DNA from: an uncultured delta proteobacterium
Lineage (GTDB): Bacteria; Desulfobacterota; Desulfobacteria; Desulfobacterales; B30-G6
Assembly (NCBI GenBank): GCA_963823335.1
Contig: CAWGLD010000001.1
Coordinates: 1,536,001 to 1,600,000, forward strand
DNA length: 64,000 bases
Direction: 5' to 3'
The translations under genes and the position numbers were made by a program. Positions 41,619-51,380 of this stretch are shown here, piece after piece; position 1 is the stretch's first letter, and every line of letters starts with the position of its first letter. Below the pieces are notes generated by a model. That model worked only from the letters and a program-made list of their open reading frames with translations, was not told the DNA's origin and ran no database searches.

Positions 41619-41640
41619 ATAAGCCCGATTTATGGCTTAT
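41619..41640. promoter_or_regulatory. Palindrome ATAAGCC-N8-GGCTTAT; candidate antitoxin operator
   Basis: Perfect 7-bp arms with an 8-bp spacer just upstream of the HTH gene's RBS. Confidence 0.5.
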
Positions 41641-41661
41641 ATACAAACCAAAAGGAAAACT

Positions 41662-42000
41662 ATGCCAAGGTCCATTATACGCACCTACTCACGCTATAAC
41701 CGTGATGCGGCTGCCTTGCTCGGCTCGTTGATCCGCGAAGCACGACATGAGCGCAAACTAACGACTCAGGAATTGTCCAACCGCGCTGGTATTTCCAGAG
41801 GACTGCTGCAACGCATCGAAAAAGGCAATCTTAAGTGCGAAATCGGAGCCGTGTTCGAGGTGGCAACCATCGTTGGCGTCAAGCTGTTTGATGCCGATGA
41901 AAGTACGTTGACGAAATACATACGGCAAACCAAGGAAAAGCTGACACTCCTGCCAAAGTCTGTTCGAAATAAATCCAAAGTGGTGCGCGATGATTTCTAA
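41662..42000 (+). CDS. XRE/HTH antitoxin (HipB-like)
   Basis: IREARHERKLTTQELSNRAGISRGLLQRIEKG; overlaps the downstream HipA-family gene. Confidence 0.88.
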   Translation: MPRSIIRTYSRYNRDAAALLGSLIREARHERKLTTQELSNRAGISRGLLQRIEKGNLKCEIGAVFEVATIVGVKLFDADESTLTKYIRQTKEKLTLLPKSVRNKSKVVRDDF

Positions 42001-43249
42001 AACGGAGAAAGAAGCCTTTGTCTGGATATGGCTGCCTGACAAAACCGAACCTATCGTGGCTGGACGGCTTGAAGCTGATAACGGCAATGTTCTGTTCAAC
42101 TACGGTAAAAGCTACCTGAATCGTACTGGTGATAGCAAACCTGCGATTGCGATTTACGAACCCGAATTGCCGCTTAAGACAGGGATGCTTCCCTTACCCG
42201 AGGGCTTGGCTATGCCCGGCTGTATCAGGGATGCCGCGCCCGATGCATGGGGCCGGCGTGTGATTATCAACAAAAAGTTGGGGTTGAAGGGCTCAAGCAC
42301 AGATACAGCCGAACTGGATGAACTGACCTACCTGCTGGAGTCAGGCTCGGACCGGATCGGTGCGCTTGATTTTCAGCGTTCCCCTACAGAGTACGTGCCG
42401 CGTACAGCTACTAACGTCAATATTAAAGAATTGATTGAATCCGCAGAACGGGTTGAAAAAGGAGTGGCCCTAACGCCGGAACTGGATCAGGCGTTGTTCC
42501 ATGGCAGTTCTATCGGCGGTGCTCGTCCTAAAGCCTTAATTCAAGAGCAAGACAAAAAATACGTGGCCAAATTCTCATCCAACACAGATCTGTACAGTGT
42601 TGTTAAAGCTGAATTCATCGCAATGCGGTTAGCTAAATTGGCCGGGCTGAATGTTGCGCCGGTAAAGCTGGCTAAAGCGGCAAACAAAGATGTGCTCTTG
42701 ATCGAGCGCTTTGACCGTGTGCCAAAAGGTGAAAAGTGGGCACGAAAAGCCATGGTCTCTGCTCTAACTCTGCTTCAGTTAGATGACATGATGGCACGGT
42801 ACGCCAGCTATGAAGAATTATCAGAAATTATCCGCCACCGTTTTACCGATCCGAAGCATACGCTGAAAGAGTTTTTCTCTCGGCTCGTCTTCAATATTCT
42901 GTGCGGCAATACCGACGATCATGCGCGAAACCATGCGGCGTTTTGGGACGGCAAAGCACTTACCCTGACGCCTGCTTATGATATTTGTCCGCAAGGTCGC
43001 ACAGGCAATGAAGCCTCACAAGCCATGCTCATATCTGGCGACAACAATCTGAGCCAACTCAAAACGTGCCTTGAGACCGCGCACAACTTCCTTCTTTCTG
43101 CGGAAGAAGCCCGTGAAACATTCGGTAACCTGACTGCCACTATCGAAAAGCATTGGGAAACCGTCTGTGAAGAAGCTGAGTTGAATGAAGTGGACAAGAA
43201 CCTTCTTTGGAGACGGCAGTTTCTAAACCCCTATTCGCTTGAGCAATAG
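41990..43249 (+). CDS. hipA: HipA-family toxin kinase
   Basis: DAAPDAWGR, SIGGARPK, AKF, LLIERFDR, GNTDDHARN, LTPAYD. Confidence 0.93.
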   Translation: MISKTEKEAFVWIWLPDKTEPIVAGRLEADNGNVLFNYGKSYLNRTGDSKPAIAIYEPELPLKTGMLPLPEGLAMPGCIRDAAPDAWGRRVIINKKLGLKGSSTDTAELDELTYLLESGSDRIGALDFQRSPTEYVPRTATNVNIKELIESAERVEKGVALTPELDQALFHGSSIGGARPKALIQEQDKKYVAKFSSNTDLYSVVKAEFIAMRLAKLAGLNVAPVKLAKAANKDVLLIERFDRVPKGEKWARKAMVSALTLLQLDDMMARYASYEELSEIIRHRFTDPKHTLKEFFSRLVFNILCGNTDDHARNHAAFWDGKALTLTPAYDICPQGRTGNEASQAMLISGDNNLSQLKTCLETAHNFLLSAEEARETFGNLTATIEKHWETVCEEAELNEVDKNLLWRRQFLNPYSLEQ

Positions 43250-43370
43250 GAATCATCTTTGAAAAAATGGGGTCCGTTCTTAACTCTTTTCCGTGAAATG
43301 AAAATCCCGGTACTTTCGGTAAATAATAATGGGAATTGACTTTATAATCGTGCAAAAGGTATTTACTGCC

Positions 43371-44879
43371 ATGAGACTCTCGATGAAGGCTAACTCCAAT
43401 CCGATATTACGCCTTGCCTTGGTTCTCGCTCTGCTCATCCTATTACCTAGTAACACTATTTTTGCGCAAACCGTCCGCAAACCAGTCTGGGCCGGGCAGT
43501 TCTATGAAGATAATCCTTCCGAGCTGGGACGGAACATCGATCAACTCATCAGAGACGCACGGAAAACCAGTCTTCAACTTCCCAAAAACAAACGCCTTAG
43601 AGCGATTGTTATGCCCCATGCCGGCTATATATACTCGGGATGGACCGCAGCTCACGCAGCCCGGGTTTTATCGGCCGGTCAATTTTCCAAGGTAATCCTG
43701 CTGGGCCCCGATCATCGTGTGGGCTTCAAAAGCGCAGCCGTCTGCGACGTCACTGCCTATGAAACCCCCCTGGGAAAAATCGATCTTCACGAAGATGTCG
43801 CGAAATTGCGTCTGCAGCCGGAGCTGTTTCAGTCCTGGCCGGTATTCCAGGACAAAGAACATTCACTGGAAGTGATCCTGCCTTTTTTACAACGCAGCCT
43901 CGATACGTTTCAACTGGTACCGGTTATGATCGGTCAGGCGGACGTGCCACGAATATCAAGGGCCCTGGAATCGATTATTGACAACGCTACCCTGCTGGTG
44001 GTCAGTTCTGATCTTTCGCATTTTCTTCCCTATGCAGATGCGGTTGTCAGGGACCGCGAAACCATTGACGAAATCATAAACCTGAAGCCGGATAAGCTGA
44101 TCAATAGGGACAACAGGGCCTGCGGAAAGGTTCCGCTTTTAATTTTAACGGAAATGGCCCGGCATAATGACTGGCAGCCGCTGCTTCTCCACTATGCCAA
44201 CAGTGGCGACACGGCGGGTGATCGATCACGGGTAGTGGGATATGCCGCCCTGGCCTTTTTTGAAGAGCGATCCATGGAAAACAAAGGGAATGCCGGTATG
44301 CAATTCACTGAAGCGCAGGGGCAGGTTCTGGTGAAACTGGCCCGCAAAACCATTCTGGACAAACTGGGACTCGATGACGCCGAGCCCGCTTCCGAAGACC
44401 TGTTTTTAGCCCTGAAAGATGACTACTTTGGATTAAAGCGCGGAACGTTTGTCACACTCAAGATGAAGGGGCAATTGCGAGGCTGTATCGGCAACCTGAC
44501 CTCCACGGAAACCGTTATAGAAGGTGTCCAGCGCAATGCAATCAACGCGGCTTTTCATGATCCCCGCTTTGCTCCTCTGGCAAAAGAGGAACTGGGACGG
44601 ACAGAAATAGAAGTCAGTATATTGACGGAGCCTCAGCCACTTGTGTACAGGGATTGGCAGGATCTGATCAAAAATCTTCGTGTCCATGTTGACGGGGTCA
44701 TCATTCGCAAAGGACATGCCAGCGCCACTTTTTTACCCCAGGTATGGGAACAATTACCCAGACCTGAAGAATTTCTTGCCCATCTGTGCATCAAGGCCGG
44801 CTTGTCATCCCAGGCCTGGAAAAATTCAGAATTGCAAGTTTTGACTTACCAGGTTCAATATTTTGAAGAGAACCGATGA
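43371..44879 (+). CDS. amrB: AmmeMemoRadiSam protein B (MEMO1-like) fused to protein A (AMMECR1), with an N-terminal signal peptide
   Basis: VRKP..AGQFY, PHAGYIYSG, LGPDH, EHSLEV, SSDLSH, ACG, NSGD...VVGY; then FVTL...LRGCIG, DPRF, EVSIL, ATFLPQVW, LC.KAG. Start 43371 or 43383. Confidence 0.93.
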   Translation: MRLSMKANSNPILRLALVLALLILLPSNTIFAQTVRKPVWAGQFYEDNPSELGRNIDQLIRDARKTSLQLPKNKRLRAIVMPHAGYIYSGWTAAHAARVLSAGQFSKVILLGPDHRVGFKSAAVCDVTAYETPLGKIDLHEDVAKLRLQPELFQSWPVFQDKEHSLEVILPFLQRSLDTFQLVPVMIGQADVPRISRALESIIDNATLLVVSSDLSHFLPYADAVVRDRETIDEIINLKPDKLINRDNRACGKVPLLILTEMARHNDWQPLLLHYANSGDTAGDRSRVVGYAALAFFEERSMENKGNAGMQFTEAQGQVLVKLARKTILDKLGLDDAEPASEDLFLALKDDYFGLKRGTFVTLKMKGQLRGCIGNLTSTETVIEGVQRNAINAAFHDPRFAPLAKEELGRTEIEVSILTEPQPLVYRDWQDLIKNLRVHVDGVIIRKGHASATFLPQVWEQLPRPEEFLAHLCIKAGLSSQAWKNSELQVLTYQVQYFEENR

Positions 44880-46968
44880 TCGTGCCATAATTCGGGTGGT
44901 CATTGCCACGGGTGTTTCCTCTGTGGTTACCCAGTTATTAACCATTCGGGAATTTTTAACGCAATTCCAGGGCAATGAAATCGTGATCGCCCTGATTCTT
45001 TTCAACTGGCTGCTTTTGGGTGGCATCGGCACCCGGATGGCCCGGGTTATTGTCAAACACGCGCACAAACCCACGGCCGACATTCTGGCCCGGCTTTGCC
45101 TGGTTTTAAGTGCCCTTGCCCTTCTGCAAATTCTGGCGATTCGCCTGTTACGTGACATCATCTTTACCCAGGGAAGTTCGGTGGGATTCTATCCCACCTG
45201 GCTGTTCGGCCTCCTGACCATTGCCCCATACTGTCTGCTATTGGGCCTTGTGCTGCCGTACAGCCTTTTTGTTCTGCGTATTGACACGGCGGACTATCCC
45301 GGTGCCCGCATTTATCTTACCGACAACATCGGAGATATCTGTGGCGGTGTCTTATTCTCTTTTATCCTGGTTTTTCTGGTAAGCCCTCTGATGGCGCTGT
45401 TTCTGGCGCACCTGCCCTTGCTGGTGTCGAGCTATCTTCTTTTTGCTCCCTCCCGCAGAAACAATCCCCGCGTTTTAACTGCTGTCGTCTTTGTGGCCGT
45501 GCTTCTGGGGGGCGGCACCGGGCTTGAAAGCATTTCTCTGACGCCCGCTGAAGGCCGGCTGGTTTTCCATCGCGAAACCCGATACGGCCGAATTGCAGTC
45601 CATCAGGACCAGGACCAATTCACCTTGTTTGAGAACGGTGTGCCCATGTTCAGCAATCAGAACCTGAGCGCTGCGGAAGAAACGATTCACTACCCTTTAT
45701 CTCAGCTGGATGCCATTCAACATGTGTTGCTGATTTCGGCCGAAGGGGGTGTTATGAGCGAGCTGGAAAAATATCCCACGCAATCAGTCGATTACGTGGA
45801 GATGGATCCCGATGTTGCCGCAGTGAAATTTCGCTATGGGATGATTAAGCGGATCAGGGGCTTAAATGTTATTCATCAGGATGGCCGGGCTTATTTGTCT
45901 CGATCCAAAAAAAACTACGATGCCATTATTGTCAATCTGGCCGAACCCGACACATTTCAAGTCAATCGCTTTTACACGGATGTGTTTTTTAAAATGGCAA
46001 GTAAACACCTTGTACAGAACGGTGTGCTGAGTTTTTCCATGCAGGGGTTTGACGCCTATCTTGCGGAGCCCCAGCGTCAAAAATTATCCTCTCTTTACAA
46101 TACCGCCAGAACGTATTTCAAGCATGTGTTGCTGCTACCCGGCCGGAAGATAGTCTTTCTGTGCAGTGACGGTAGAATGAACACAGATATCCCGACTGCC
46201 CTGGAACAAAAAGGAATCGCCAGCGCATATCTCAGCGGATTTTTTTACGGCAATGTGTCACCTGAGAGAATCCATCGCTTGAACACGCTTTTGGATCCTT
46301 CAACACCTCGCAATGTTGATACCTCACCCTATTTGATGCGTTTGATGTTTTCCCAGTGGTTTGCAAAGTTTCAAACATCTCCGACCGGGTTTTTTGTCGT
46401 GATCGCTATTCTTTCTGCACTATACCTGTTTCGTGTTACCAGGGAGGAGTTTGTTCTGTTTTCAAGCGGGGCCATGACCATGGGCAGTGAAGTATTGGTT
46501 ATCTTTGCATTTCAAATTTATTTCGGCTATGTTTATCTTCAAATCGGAATCATTGTCACGCTGTTTTTAACCGGTCTGTTACCCGGTGCCTGGCTCGGTA
46601 ACCGGTTGTGCCACCAGGGCAAGCCGATCCTGGTTATGACCGACGTGTTCCTGATTGCTTCCCTGACGCTGTTTATTCTGGCCGTTTCAAATATTGGAGA
46701 CCGTCTTCCATTTGTTTTTTACCTGGCCTTCGGCTTTGTGGTATCGCTGGCCTGTGGTTTCCAATTTCCGGTGGCACTGTATCTCGGGGGCAGTGACAAC
46801 AAGGCTGCCACCCGCTCTTTTTCCGCGGATCTGATGGGGGCTGCCTGGGGTACCTTGTTGACCAGTGTCATTCTGATTCCCTATGCAGGGATTCTTTGGA
46901 CGGCGGGGGCTTTGATCGGCTTGAAAACGATCAGCTTGATTGTGATCGGCACGAGCAGGAGCCGTTGA
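44863..46968 (+). CDS. Polytopic membrane protein with an internal spermidine-synthase-like (SAM-binding) domain
   Basis: N- and C-terminal TM blocks around ETRYGRIAV, EETIHYP, VEMDP, DGRAYL, YDAIIVN, RFYT. Confidence 0.85.
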   Translation: MKRTDDRAIIRVVIATGVSSVVTQLLTIREFLTQFQGNEIVIALILFNWLLLGGIGTRMARVIVKHAHKPTADILARLCLVLSALALLQILAIRLLRDIIFTQGSSVGFYPTWLFGLLTIAPYCLLLGLVLPYSLFVLRIDTADYPGARIYLTDNIGDICGGVLFSFILVFLVSPLMALFLAHLPLLVSSYLLFAPSRRNNPRVLTAVVFVAVLLGGGTGLESISLTPAEGRLVFHRETRYGRIAVHQDQDQFTLFENGVPMFSNQNLSAAEETIHYPLSQLDAIQHVLLISAEGGVMSELEKYPTQSVDYVEMDPDVAAVKFRYGMIKRIRGLNVIHQDGRAYLSRSKKNYDAIIVNLAEPDTFQVNRFYTDVFFKMASKHLVQNGVLSFSMQGFDAYLAEPQRQKLSSLYNTARTYFKHVLLLPGRKIVFLCSDGRMNTDIPTALEQKGIASAYLSGFFYGNVSPERIHRLNTLLDPSTPRNVDTSPYLMRLMFSQWFAKFQTSPTGFFVVIAILSALYLFRVTREEFVLFSSGAMTMGSEVLVIFAFQIYFGYVYLQIGIIVTLFLTGLLPGAWLGNRLCHQGKPILVMTDVFLIASLTLFILAVSNIGDRLPFVFYLAFGFVVSLACGFQFPVALYLGGSDNKAATRSFSADLMGAAWGTLLTSVILIPYAGILWTAGALIGLKTISLIVIGTSRSR

Positions 46969-46996
46969 TAAACTCCCGGGGAGCACTTTATTCGCC

Positions 46997-48220
46997 ATGA
47001 ACAAATTATCCAGACGTCAGTTTATCTGTGGCAGCGCAGCCTGTTTCACAACGGCCATTGCTTTGCAATGTTTTGGTCCATTTGGACCTGATTTCTGTGC
47101 GGCCGATATCAACGGCGACATTCGCGGCAGTGTGTTTAAAGGCGATGCGCCTGAAAAGCTCTGGAAATGGTCTCATGAAGGCTTTCTATATAAAAAATTA
47201 AAAAACGATAAAGTGATCTGCGGTATCTGCCCCAACCGCTGCATCCTGGCACCGGGGGATCGCAGTATCTGCCGCTCCAGGGTTAACCTGGATGGCAGAT
47301 TATACAGCCTGGCCTATGGCAATCCCTGTTCGGTGAACACCGACCCCATTGAAAAAAAACCGCTCTACCATTTCAAACCGCACACAAGGGCTTTCTCTCT
47401 TGCCACCACCGGCTGCAATTTCCGCTGCCTGAACTGTCAGAACTGGGAAATATCCCAAGCCAAGCCCCATGAAGTAGCGCCTATCTACGACCTTTTTCCG
47501 GCTGATGTCATTGACGCCGCTAAGAAGGCCCAGGCCCGATCAATTGCCTACACGTACTCCGAGCCCAGCACTTTTTTTGAATACATGATCGATATTGCCC
47601 GTCTGGCCAGAAAATCAGGCCTGTATAACCTGTGGGTGTCCAATGCGTACATTAACACCGAGCCGCTTCTGGCGCTCTGCAAGGTTCTGGATTCGGCCAC
47701 ATTGAATATCAAGGCTTACAATGACGGAATTTACCGTAAACTTAACGGTGGCCGTTTGAAGCCCGTGTTGAACACGTTTAAGACCCTGCACGAACAGGGT
47801 GTTCATTTCGAAATGATCAATCTGGTGGTGCCCGGTTATACGGATGATGAGGACATGGTCAAAGCCATGTGCGGATGGATTTTAGAAAATATCGGCCCTG
47901 ATTATCCGCTGCATTTCCTGCGGTTTTTTCCGAGTTACAAATTGGACCGGCTGCCCCCGACCCCGGTGTCCACCTTGACCCGCTATCGGGAGCTGGCCAT
48001 GCAGCAGGGGATTCATTATGCCTATGTCGGCAACGTCGCCGGTCATGAAGGCAACAACACCTACTGTCATAACTGTAAGAAACTGCTGATCGAGCGACAG
48101 GGATATACCATTCCCAGCTATAACCTGGTTGGCAATCATTGCAAGTTCTGTGACACGCGCATTCCCGGGGTATGGCATGAGACGTCTTGGCCCAAAGAGC
48201 GACACGGTCGCGTCCTATAA
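46997..48220 (+). CDS. amrS: AmmeMemoRadiSam radical SAM enzyme with a twin-arginine-like leader
   Basis: SRRQFI leader; DPIEKKPLYHF; GCNFRCLNCQNWEISQ; IAYTYSEP; PLHFLRFFP.YKL; Y.GNV. Confidence 0.95.
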   Translation: MNKLSRRQFICGSAACFTTAIALQCFGPFGPDFCAADINGDIRGSVFKGDAPEKLWKWSHEGFLYKKLKNDKVICGICPNRCILAPGDRSICRSRVNLDGRLYSLAYGNPCSVNTDPIEKKPLYHFKPHTRAFSLATTGCNFRCLNCQNWEISQAKPHEVAPIYDLFPADVIDAAKKAQARSIAYTYSEPSTFFEYMIDIARLARKSGLYNLWVSNAYINTEPLLALCKVLDSATLNIKAYNDGIYRKLNGGRLKPVLNTFKTLHEQGVHFEMINLVVPGYTDDEDMVKAMCGWILENIGPDYPLHFLRFFPSYKLDRLPPTPVSTLTRYRELAMQQGIHYAYVGNVAGHEGNNTYCHNCKKLLIERQGYTIPSYNLVGNHCKFCDTRIPGVWHETSWPKERHGRVL

Positions 48221-48235
48221 AAACGTGAAACGATT

Positions 48236-48520
48236 TTATTCAAACTCGTAAATTTCGTACTGGGTTTCCTGCTCCAGCAATTGATCGATCTGTTTTTGAA
48301 TTTTCGCCCTTTCAGTACCCTGCAGCCAGGCATTCCAGTAATAGAGTGATTGCCATTTGGTGACCACCAGGCTTTCTTCGGGCTTGTCAACCCGTTTCAG
48401 GGTTTCCCCGGTGATATACCCCGGAACGCCCATGGTGATAGCTCGCAGCTGATTGATGAGTACCAGCAATGCTTCTTTTTTTTCTTCGGGCACGTTTCTC
48501 TTGATATGGACCCTGATCAT
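48236..48520 (-). CDS. Antibiotic biosynthesis monooxygenase (ABM)-domain protein
   Basis: PGYITGETL, LVVTKWQS...WNAW...ER; GGAGG RBS; ATGA coupling to the MMPL gene. Confidence 0.85.
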   Translation of the reverse strand: MIRVHIKRNVPEEKKEALLVLINQLRAITMGVPGYITGETLKRVDKPEESLVVTKWQSLYYWNAWLQGTERAKIQKQIDQLLEQETQYEIYEFE

Positions 48521-51068
48521 TTTCGACCCTCCTTTTGATGTTTTTTTCTGCGGCGGTCGCGTATTTCAAAGATGGCCGGCATGAAGATGATGCTGCCGAA
48601 CAGACAGCCGGCAATACCGATGACCGCGACAATTCCCATGCTTTTCAGCCCGGGATAATGGGACAGGATGATGGAACCAAAGCCGGCGATGGTGGTCAGG
48701 GACGTCAGCACAACCGCCCTGCCGGTTTGATACCAGCCCCTCAACGGGCTGTGGAAATCCGGATGTTTGAAAGTGTTGGTAAAATGGACACCATCATCGA
48801 TACCGATACCGATAATCATCGGTAGTACCATGATATTCAGGAAATTGAAGTCCACCCGAAACAGGGTCATGAATCCCATCAACATGGACATTCCGATAAA
48901 AAGCGGCAGCATCGAGAAACAGAGATATCTAATGTCGCGATAGTAGACCCAGAGGATAACCACGATGCACAAGCTTGCCAGACCCAGGGATGTTTTGAGG
49001 TTCTGAAGGATCAGTCGTTTAAGATCGCCCGTGAGGATGTTGGCCCCGGTTAAATAAAAGGAGCCAGGGTCCACACCTGCTTGCGACAGGTGCTGGATGA
49101 GTCGATCTTTGAACTGCATTGTATCCTTATAGGACCAGAGATCCACCCTCGGATGGATGTAGATGATGGCGGTAAATTGATCGTTTTTCTGGAAAGCAAG
49201 GCGCTTTAGAATCGAACCCAGGTCAGATGCGCGCAGATGTGATGGGAGCAGCACAGTCTGGTTGGAAAAACCAGCCCCAAGCTGTTCGACATAGCGATCA
49301 TACAGACCGTTGGTTCTAAACCCGTATTTTTTCAAAGAACTCTCGAGATTTTGCCGTATTCGATCCAGATCGAAGGTTTCCGGATGTGACTGCATCCAGG
49401 CGATGTTATGTCTCTGCATGACCGGTGACAAGAGAAACCGGCTCGTGGAAGTGATCTTGGATATGTATCCCTGTTCTTGCATGGGTTGCAGAGACTGAAC
49501 CATGAATGCTTCGCGATCCATGACGTCTTCTTCGGAAGATCCGGTGATCGTCAACAGAACCGTGCCGGTGGAGTCACCGAGCCAGGTGGTGACCTGGTCC
49601 TGCAGCTGCAAAACGCCGCTGTCACGTGGTCTGAAGTTTTTCAGGTTGTCGTCGAAGCGCACCTGAAAACCGGCGATCAACAGTCCACCTGTGCAGAGAG
49701 TGGCCAGTATCAGTGTTCGTCCGGGATGGCGCTTTATGGAAGTAAATAAAGGGGTCAGAAAAAAACCAGCCAGGGTCGCCTTCTTTTGGAACCGCCCGGT
49801 GGACGAAGTCCAGACGAGGCAGGCCGGCAGGAATACCAGCATGGCCAGGAGACAGAACAGAATACCCGTTCCGGTTAAAATGCCGAGTTCCCTGAATCCT
49901 TTGAAATCAGAGAAACCCACCGCATAAAAAGCCATGGCAGTGGTGAGGCCGCCGATAAATATCCCCGTTCCGGCCTCTTTAAATGTGGCTTCCAGACGTG
50001 ACAGTTCGTCCAGATCTGCCACCTCAGGATCGAAAAATCGATTGACCACATGGATAGCAAAATCGATGCCCAGCCCGATCAGGACACAGGCGAACAGGCA
50101 GGTCAGAATATTGAGATGCTGAAACACTATTCCGGCAAACCCGATGGTCCAAAAAAGACTCATGACCAGAGGTACACTGACCAGAAGAAGAACACCGGGG
50201 GTTCGAAATGATATGAAAAACAGGAGCATGACACAGACAAAAGAGGTGATCAGGGTGACCTTGATATCCAGACGGGTAATGGCTTCATCTTTGACGGCAA
50301 TGGGGTAGCCGCCGGTGTGTCGAACCTGGATGGCTGTTTCCGATAAATTTCGAGATGTTTTGAAACGTCTGCCAACACCTGTTTTTCCATGGCAGCGACT
50401 TCCTGCATCAATTTCTTACTGAAAGCGATGTCCTGTGGGGGTTCTGTGGGAGTCAGAAACATGAAATAGGTGCGCTTGTTTTTTGTCCGGTACAGACCGG
50501 TTTCATCGAATCCGCCTTTCTGGTGAAAAGGAATTTGAAGGGCTGAAAAAAGCAGGTCTCCCACACCCAGGGGGTCCAGGGCAATCATACGTTTGCCTGC
50601 CTGGCCCAGCGGCGTCATGAGAAGCTGCCTGTTTTCACGAATTTTTTGCTCGATATTCTCGCTGGTCAGGTTTTCCGTGAGTGTTTGCATGTTTTCCGCT
50701 GTCAGGAGCAGGGGAATATGGGCCAGAAGGGTGTCGAACCAACCCAGGACCTGCTCAGGGTCGTGTTGATAATCCACCTTGGAAATCATGGGGAATTGGG
50801 CGTATTGTCCAGCCAGAGTGCCCAGGAATTCGGTGATAATAGACAGATCCAGTGTTTCATCCACCGTAATGACCGATATTAAAAGCGATTGAAATCCAAC
50901 CTCTTCGGTGATCTCAAAAAAGCGCTGAACTTCCGGACGGCCTGATGGAAGCAGGGAAAAGAGACTGAGGTTCAACTTGATCCGCAGGGCAGCCATGATC
51001 GATATCCCTGTGAGAACCAGTGCCAGGAGGATGATGGCCTTATGAAAACGGTGGATGAATTGAGACAT
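48517..51068 (-). pseudogene. MMPL/RND-family lipid exporter split by a frameshift near 50345
   Basis: ORFs 50250-51092 and 48517-50229 join in a shifted frame (..AIQVRHTGGYPIAVKD..); GLGIDFAIH and GIGIDDGVH motifs. Confidence 0.8.
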
Positions 51069-51380
51069 GTTTGCTGAACCCCGATGATCCATCTTTTTGA
51101 ACGATATCTGATTTATACACTGTATTTATGGGAAAGTAAAAAGAAAGGGTCTGAGGGTTGAAGGGTTGGAGGGGAAGCCCTTAAGCTTTTAGCTCTTTGT
51201 CAGAGAAGAGCCAAGGGCAAACAGCTGATACCGTATGGTATTATAGGAATGTGCAGTCTGTAATACACGAAACTGTATTTGAAAATAGCCTTTTCTTTGG
51301 TTGCCCTCCACACCTTCAACCCCATCTATCTTGTTCCCCCGGTTTTTATAGGTCTTCTAAAATGTGTTGGTCAAAACTTT

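Follow-up and report, generated by a model that had tools for sequence, protein, structure and literature searches.

Introduction

The AmmeMemoRadiSam system brings together an AMMECR1-type protein (AmrA, TIGR04335), a Memo-type protein (AmrB, TIGR04336) and a radical S-adenosylmethionine (SAM) enzyme (AmrS, TIGR04337), and it has human relatives that are linked to disease. In its usual form, by our own description rather than by a curated rule, the system is leaderless and cytoplasmic, and radical SAM enzymes in general are taken to be cytoplasmic since they require SAM and a strong reductant. A 2019 study of the Memo superfamily by Burroughs et al. in J Biol Chem reportedly linked Memo to the modification of nucleotide bases and isoprenoids. 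Here, we describe a three-gene operon of an uncultured delta proteobacterium (Desulfobacterales; B30-G6) that matches all three families above their cut-offs but departs from this usual form: AmrA and AmrB are fused, both soluble proteins begin with predicted export leaders, and the gene of a 701-residue transporter is inserted between them. Its AmrS shares the radical SAM motif and the flanking cysteine motifs with the canonical enzyme. The operon lies in a 64,000-nt stretch of DNA, hereafter the window, which comprises positions 1,536,001–1,600,000 of the forward strand of contig CAWGLD010000001.1 (assembly GCA_963823335.1).

Single parts of the operon also resemble described proteins. Among solved structures, the pyruvate formate-lyase activating enzyme (3c8f/3cb8, E 8e-16) comes closest to the core of AmrS; it has the CX3CX2C motif in common with AmrS but is cytoplasmic, leaderless and devoid of the N- and C-terminal cysteine motifs of the latter. 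The window AmrS scores 51.2 bits against a cut-off of 231.75 in the corresponding NCBIfam model (PFLA). The twin-arginine translocation (Tat) pathway exports proteins in the folded state, with their cofactors in place. Its Fe–S substrates, such as hydrogenase small subunits and ferredoxins of the NapG/HybA type, fold around their Fe–S clusters before export and carry an S-R-R-x-F-[LI] leader, and in these traits AmrS resembles them as far as can be predicted; unlike AmrS, they are not radical SAM enzymes. The membrane protein combines two known folds. Spermidine synthases (PF01564; human SpdS 2o05, Thermus thermophilus 1uir) have their Rossmann fold and nucleotide-binding motifs in common with its soluble domain, and transporters of the major facilitator superfamily (MFS) of the DHA1/SLC18 type (SotB 6kki, VMAT2 8xob, NorA) superpose on it with their 12 core helices (Z 28.6 to ~22, root-mean-square deviation (rmsd) 3.4–4.3, ~340 residues). 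MFS proteins with 14 helices, such as the POT peptide transporters, have two extra central helices. Unlike DHA1/SLC18 and POT transporters, the window protein is modelled with a soluble domain of 280 residues on the outward end of its central hairpin, and it differs from the ‘fused MFS/spermidine synthase’ of NF037959 in that the domain is inserted within the transporter and not terminal, is predicted to face outwards and has the Asp of the DSxDP motif replaced.

In the parts of the literature that our search reached, no description of a radical SAM enzyme that is exported came to light. The report on the HXS defence system describes a radical SAM enzyme without signal peptide, proposed to be cytoplasmic, the product of which is exported (PMC13128918).

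Results

The three genes are arranged head to tail on the plus strand, on which all operon features given below are located. The Memo-AMMECR1 fusion gene (AmrB-AmrA, 498 residues, 43383..44879 including the stop codon) comes first. The membrane protein gene (701 residues, 44863..46968) overlaps its end by 17 nt with a TTG start codon, and the gene of the AmrS-type radical SAM enzyme, which carries an N-terminal extension, follows at 46997..48220 including the stop codon (407 residues). A preliminary description of this DNA, made from its letters, had reported three tightly linked genes, and open reading frames (ORFs) together with Pfam and NCBIfam matches bear this out. The leaders of the fusion and of AmrS read as given there. 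The bounds of the fusion gene stood in part: the leader is retained, while its start at 43371 gives way to the ATG at 43383 (MKANS...), 12 nt downstream, which alignments of orthologues favour.

The fusion protein exceeds the cut-offs of both TIGR04336 (AmrB, 237 bits, cut-off 26) and TIGR04335 (AmrA, 194.1 bits, cut-off 99). Its Memo domain (43482..44252; PF01875, 164.5 bits) yields a profile match to human MEMO1 (7kq8, E 4.9e-34) and its AMMECR1 domain (44331..44864; PF01871, 164.8 bits) to 1wsc (E 2.9e-42); residues R366, G367, C368 and G370 of the RGCIG motif in the latter are invariant in the aligned orthologues. The protein begins with a predicted Sec-type signal peptide of 28 residues (43383..43466) that is composed of an n-region with K2 and R10, the core LALVLALLILL with a hydropathy of 3.51, and the c-region TIFA, and the mature chain would start with QTVRKPVWAG. 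Ahead of mature R32, only M1 and A28 are near-invariant in the alignment of this leader. The remaining residues are free to vary, while the positive charge at the beginning, the hydrophobic core and the small residues ahead of the invariant mature start are kept, and such variable letters with a kept pattern are typical of signal-peptide evolution. The leader has the features of a Sec signal cleaved by signal peptidase I, and a crude rule for n-, h- and c-regions passes 49 of 54 orthologues. Under the strict small-x-small rule, the window fusion fails because position −3 is Ile; three further failures trace to problems with starts or contig edges.

AmrS matches TIGR04337 with 334.4 bits (cut-off 220) over residues 65–397 only, which leaves about 60 extra residues at the N-terminus. 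The first ~36 of these form a twin-arginine leader (46997..47104) with SRRQFI at residues 5–10, followed by GSAACFTTAIAL and then CAA; it has the features of a Tat signal and, by our reading of the alignment, is probably cleaved after CAA. The mature protein would then start with a conserved extension, DIRGxVFKGDAPxKLWKWSHEG (47105..47176; conserved residues D41, I42, G44, D50, A51, P52, W56, K57 and W58), that is absent from leaderless AmrS. The CX3CX2C radical SAM cluster motif (C140, C144 and C147; 47414..47437) is invariant in 44 orthologues and is also found in the leaderless paralogue of the same genome.

The arginine pair is conserved as well. RR followed by any residue and two hydrophobic ones occurs near the N-terminus in 118 of the 120 best AmrS homologues (73–89% identical, 393–418 residues), and R6, R7 and F9 are invariant in the 44 aligned orthologues. 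In the two homologues without RR, the annotated start falls within the hydrophobic stretch and appears to be mis-called. As a control, we searched the genome for [ST]RRxF[LIVM] with a hydrophobic stretch beside the start, which is present in only 11 of 5532 open frames of at least 150 residues. AmrS is one of these 11 and the remaining frames resemble ordinary Tat substrates; the rarity of the motif therefore argues against its occurrence in AmrS by chance. The genome encodes tatC (228 bits, cut-off 132.7), which points to the presence of the Tat machinery. A structure model of AmrS (mean predicted local distance difference test (pLDDT) of 63) contains a helix at residues 6–22 followed by a low-confidence stretch and is unusable beyond the leader. 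A reading of this leader as a lipoprotein signal was rejected, as its Cys residues show no lipobox-like conservation.

Four estuary metatranscriptome runs contain contigs with at least 95% identity to the operon. One (44068–45356) spans the junction between fusion and membrane protein genes. The Tat-leader codons are covered by four contigs, and those at 46326–47235, 46831–47328 and 46793–47088 also span the junction between membrane protein and AmrS genes. These contigs give no strand, ends or single transcript, and RNA libraries may contain DNA; they lend weak support to transcription of the Tat leader in nature.

For the membrane protein, an AlphaFold model calculated from an alignment of 55 orthologues (pLDDT 87.5, predicted template modelling score 0.87) shows seven helices, a soluble domain and seven further helices. 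The N-terminal transmembrane (TM) helices (residues 4–220, 44872..45522) extend over residues 4–34, 39–66, 72–100, 109–141, 147–172, 175–193 and 202–220. The spermidine-synthase-like Rossmann domain (residues 222–502, 45526..46368) is inserted between TM7 and TM8, across the membrane from the loops rich in K and R, and is followed by the C-terminal helices (residues 508–696, 46384..46950). In the short loops taken from the model, K and R average 17.7 for the face that also holds both termini, compared with 1.0 for the opposite face, and the face of the termini is the richer one in all 55 orthologues. By the positive-inside rule, this asymmetry places both termini in the cytoplasm, and the spermidine-synthase-like domain is therefore predicted to face the periplasm.

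Structural comparison of the model by VIA-align identified the MFS fold, with Z 28.6 to SotB (6kki; rmsd 3.4 over 342 residues) and 27.6 to VMAT2 (8xob), followed by VAChT, OCTN2, FLVCR2, NorA and dozens of further matches above Z 21, each over ~340 residues, as expected for the 12-helix fold. Cation exporters and transporters (SotB, VMAT2, VAChT, OCTN2, NorA) are among the top matches. In our reading of the model, TM7 and TM8 would form the extra central hairpin of a 14-helix MFS protein, and the soluble domain would sit on the outward end of this hairpin. Curated sequence models did not report the fold: PF07690 gave no match at E ≤1e-3 (0.001), and NF037959 reached 31.2 bits (cut-off 40) over the soluble domain only. 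Foldseek against the PDB likewise returned the SpeE part only, and the MFS fold surfaced only in the wide VIA search. The transporter family comprises 3317 clusters (50% identity) at E ≤1e-30 and is uncharacterised throughout.

The sole Pfam match of the membrane protein is PF01564 (44.7 bits vs 22.9, residues 273–391). Among solved spermidine synthases, the domain matches 1uir in Foldseek (E 9.7e-10) and human SpdS by profile (E 2.3e-15), and PRK03612 aligns to residues 4–390 with the N-terminal helices included. It misses the cut-offs of all equivalog and subfamily models, in the case of TIGR00417 with 39.7 bits against 249.55. The Gly-rich loop (motif I), the acidic residue that ends strand 2 (E313) and the DG motif (D340) are retained. 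The D-S-x-D-P motif reads N-L-A-E-P in the window protein, where N358 occupies the position of the catalytic Asp of SpeE. Across 20 distant relatives, the residue found here varies between N, D, G, H, C and V, while the signature Q-x-NRF[YF]T does not change. In the wide family, the Gly loop is GGG[VLI][SAE]G without a conserved acidic residue; in the window subfamily, it is SAEGG, with an acidic residue. From these motifs, the domain looks like a binder of adenosyl compounds without the catalytic base of SpeE.

The genome holds, in addition, a leaderless AmrS (337 residues, on another contig), a separate AmrB and, just upstream of the window, an AmrA, and the latter two are likewise without leaders. 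Given these further copies, the operon is, judged by its sequence, a paralogous, export-tagged copy of the AmmeMemoRadiSam system. Window AmrS and the leaderless paralogue are 40% identical over residues 61–392 with all Cys motifs in common, and the paralogue begins at the equivalent of residue 61. Both AmrS types are found together in at least six of the genomes sampled below.

We determined the linkage of the three genes at two evolutionary distances. In the scan of close relatives, species-representative genomes were queried with AmrS, which yielded 80 loci (62–89% identity), nearly all from metagenome-assembled genomes of the Desulfobacterales type. Where at least 3700 nt of upstream sequence are available (55 loci), fusion, membrane protein gene and AmrS follow each other in this order in 51; one locus shows the membrane protein gene only (L076) and three show neither partner. 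With 300–3699 nt upstream, 19 of 22 loci show the membrane protein gene, and three loci with less than 300 nt are too short to judge. The exceptional loci hold orphan copies with unrelated neighbours; one such copy is the second in a genome with the full trio.

In a sample of 301 genomes of the phylum, a profile of the membrane protein finds relatives in 121 genomes at E ≤1e-20. Strong orthologues have AmrS within 3 kb in 11 of 14 cases, or 12 of 14 if one across a contig break is counted. For weaker relatives, AmrS is within 3 kb in at least 22 of 73, with 150 of 486 AmrS matches listed. All 22 of these neighbouring AmrS frames are at least 375 residues long; among the AmrS matches listed, none of the 28 frames of at most 360 residues is adjacent. 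An atlas search returned only unnamed clusters from several phyla, which we regard as leads.

We examined 20 of the 22 distant pairs, picked by adjacency and not by leaders. Gene order and orientation are shuffled at these loci, and the membrane proteins are 24–30% identical to that of the window. All 19 AmrS found by the ORF filter start with an RR leader (KR in one), compared with none of 20 short-frame AmrS, and a Memo-AMMECR1 fusion with a hydrophobic leader is present in 12 loci. In three loci, DUF362 proteins, one of them with an RR leader, replace the fusion beside Tat-AmrS and transporter. DUF362 genes are located at L091:264-1154, L091:4435-5307, L092:1606-2505, L104:320-832 and L137:6-902. 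The leaders of four distant fusions (L101, L106, L107 and L108) end with AAC or PAC before Q and resemble lipoprotein signals, not substrates of signal peptidase I.

A tree was calculated from the core regions of 51 AmrS sequences, of which 31 bear leaders (window, 11 close orthologues and 19 distant ones) and 20 are leaderless; L111 was left out, as its longest ORF did not correspond to the gene. A branch with 100/100 support parts 16 leaderless sequences from the remaining 35, which include all 31 leader-bearing ones and four that are leaderless. The leader label requires three changes on this tree, compared with a mean of 16 for shuffled labels and 0 of 500 shuffles as low. As the root is a midpoint, we do not claim any direction of change.

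A second radical SAM family (~358 residues, PF04055, only 22 bits in TIGR04337) with an RR leader is encoded beside transporter relatives in two loci (L142:2253-3320, minus strand; L110:3285-4364, plus strand), and the two proteins are 55% identical. The family is present in 253 of the 301 genomes, mostly in a leaderless form of ~315 residues. In its best 68 rows (34 frames of at least 350 residues and 34 short ones), 5 of the 34 long frames are located within 3 kb of a transporter relative, 12 within that distance of a leader-type AmrS and 16 near either, compared with 0 of 34 short frames; related genomes are not independent, and these figures are therefore counts and not tests.

Some transporter relatives are associated with Fe–S modules. 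A gene for a NapH-like membrane polyferredoxin adjoins the relative at L091:5307-6830 and L137:907-2469. Eight of the 150 top-ranking representatives of this family have C-terminal extensions, resulting in proteins of 900–1012 residues. A Fer4_5 module of the NapH/NosR type is detected by Pfam in six of these (P0159, P0183, P0188, P0224, P0243 and P0253); by eye, identical Cys motifs are visible in one of the remaining two, and the other looks frameshifted. These NapH-type fusions and neighbours may constitute an electron route for the exported enzymes.

Discussion

The operon is best described as a predicted extracytoplasmic radical SAM module, the transporter of which most likely supplies SAM; we assign a probability of roughly 0.55 to this reading as a whole. 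Export of the system as such is, from the predictions above, very probable, and the linkage of its parts is close and ancient. The preliminary description had proposed a system working outside the cytoplasm, and the conserved leaders, the co-occurrence of the genes, tatC and the predicted outward orientation of the domain agree with this proposal. The leaders on which it relied are kept in orthologues (RR in 118/120 AmrS homologues, Sec pattern in 49/54 fusions), the orthologues do not use alternative downstream starts that would remove them, and the expected co-occurrence of Tat-bearing AmrS, signal-bearing fusion and membrane protein gene is found in 51/55 loci with sufficient upstream DNA. 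Its polytopic membrane protein with a SAM-fold domain is confirmed, with the domain now predicted to face outwards. Of the two roles it had offered for this protein, supply of SAM or a second group-transfer step, the evidence leans to supply because of (i) the transporter fold, (ii) the lost catalytic residue of SpeE and (iii) the linkage to two exported radical SAM families; the transfer step keeps some probability and is weighed below.

In the proposed mechanism, a strict anaerobe would use all three proteins jointly on the outside of its cytoplasmic membrane. The transporter would export SAM, which is a sulfonium cation, and the outward domain would capture it and hand it to the exported radical SAM enzyme. 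Electrons would come from a low-potential periplasm or from the membrane Fe–S partner that some relatives encode. The substrate would be an envelope or exported molecule and not cytoplasmic RNA. Different exported radical SAM enzymes have the need for SAM and electrons in common, and a transporter with an outward SAM-type pocket would therefore be the simplest SAM supply. That the transporter both exports and presents SAM is, taken separately, a proposal with somewhat less than an even chance. More tentative still is the generalisation to a dedicated supply device, in which an MFS exporter with an outward SAM-docking domain, complemented by a NapH-type module in some lineages, would serve at least two Tat-exported radical SAM families.

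If correct, a conserved exported group with an outward SAM-type domain would overturn the assumption that radical SAM enzymes are restricted to the cytoplasm and would make SAM an extracytoplasmic cofactor. The target of this Memo/AMMECR1/radical SAM system would be located in the cell envelope, which would give the search for the substrate of an orphan system a place to look.

Several observations weigh against this reading. The location of all proteins rests on prediction, and we know of no occurrence of SAM outside the cytoplasm. The radical SAM cluster requires a donor of very low potential, and the operon is without an electron-carrier gene. True SpeE owes its preference for decarboxylated SAM to an acidic Gly-loop residue; as the acidic residue of SAEGG sits at this very place, the ligand of the domain may not be SAM itself. 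With respect to linkage, Tat-AmrS occurs as an orphan without its partners at L048, L060 and L081, 51 of 73 weaker membrane relatives have no AmrS within 3 kb among the AmrS matches listed (150 of 486), and most of 12 further transporter relatives have other neighbours; the transporter family is wider than the link to radical SAM enzymes. In the tree, leaderless AmrS from L112, L113, L114 and L117 nest on the leader-bearing side and may represent leader losses or a third type. In three related genomes, a leaderless AmrS (L133:7849-8886, L136:7855-8862, L138:7585-8820) is encoded ~1.5 kb from a distant transporter relative on the other strand, with two intervening genes and, on the far side, GAF and Slp-lipoprotein genes; such an arrangement does not fit the simple rule that the transporter pairs with exported AmrS.

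Among other explanations, the most probable one keeps the export of the system and assigns the membrane protein a step in the pathway: its outward domain would take an aminopropyl, methyl or related group from a SAM-type donor and attach it to the substrate of the radical SAM enzyme, perhaps while this substrate leaves through the MFS pore. The aminopropyltransferase fold of the domain is in line with such a role, the window subfamily keeps E361-P362 and the acidic Gly-loop residue, the conserved Q-x-NRF[YF]T could form a new active site, and many relatives have no radical SAM neighbour. The position of the SpeE catalytic Asp, however, varies between N, D, G, H, C and V, the scores are far below the equivalog cut-offs (TIGR00417, 39.7 vs 249.55), and the donor must still get to the periplasm. 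Two exported radical SAM families with varying third partners also fit a shared need better than a single pathway step, and we consider a transferase unlikely.

The radical step could instead take place before or during export, with AmrS binding SAM and acting, or taking on a product or modification, in the cytoplasm and leaving it by Tat afterwards, so that no SAM is turned over outside and the membrane protein has an unrelated role in transport. Tat, as is generally known, carries folded, cofactor-loaded proteins, and SAM could travel inside the enzyme. A published precedent is the HXS system, in which the radical SAM enzyme is proposed to be cytoplasmic and its product is exported (PMC13128918). 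On this explanation, the fusion cannot meet AmrS beforehand since it is exported unfolded by Sec. The outward SAM-type domain and the tight coupling of the genes are left unexplained, and an exported enzyme for single use would be costly, which together make this sequence of events improbable.

A membrane protein that works inwards, taking up by-products of the outside reaction (5′-deoxyadenosine, methionine) or its modified product instead of releasing SAM, would draw on the ability of MFS proteins to work in either direction and on an outward adenosyl-binding domain suited to capture; 5′-deoxyadenosine is generally known to inhibit radical SAM enzymes. Import would leave the exit of SAM unsolved, and the best structural matches are mostly exporters and antiporters, though the fold gives no direction; we regard it as distinctly improbable.

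That the leaders are non-functional, either mis-called starts, for which a GTG at V46 of AmrS offers a possible alternative, or vestiges as in NarG, with soluble parts as cytoplasmic as radical SAM enzymes otherwise are, has very little in its favour given that RR, hydrophobic stretch and c-region are kept in 118/120 homologues and in distant relatives, the partner fusion has an independent Sec leader, the membrane domain is predicted to face out, a leaderless set coexists in the genome and contigs from RNA libraries cover the leader codons.

Flanking sequences and genes

No Rfam family was matched at E ≤1 over 42900–48600, and there is therefore no riboswitch clue; promoter-like sites around the operon do not exceed those in shuffled sequences. 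We rejected the neighbouring HipA/HTH, ABM and RND transporter genes as parts of the system, as the flank is conserved only in the closest relatives.

Just 5′ of the operon, the gene of a helix-turn-helix (HTH) antitoxin-like protein and that of a HipA-family kinase overlap at 41632–43249 on the plus strand; they are not conserved there in relatives. Downstream, an HpnN/MMPL-type resistance-nodulation-division (RND) transporter gene on the minus strand (48517–51092) is split into ORFs of 280 and 570 residues with a frame change near 50349. Its relative at L009 is a single ORF of 887 residues, and the split in the window reflects either a frameshift or faulty assembly. A small ABM-domain gene (48236–48520, minus strand) overlaps the end of the split RND gene.

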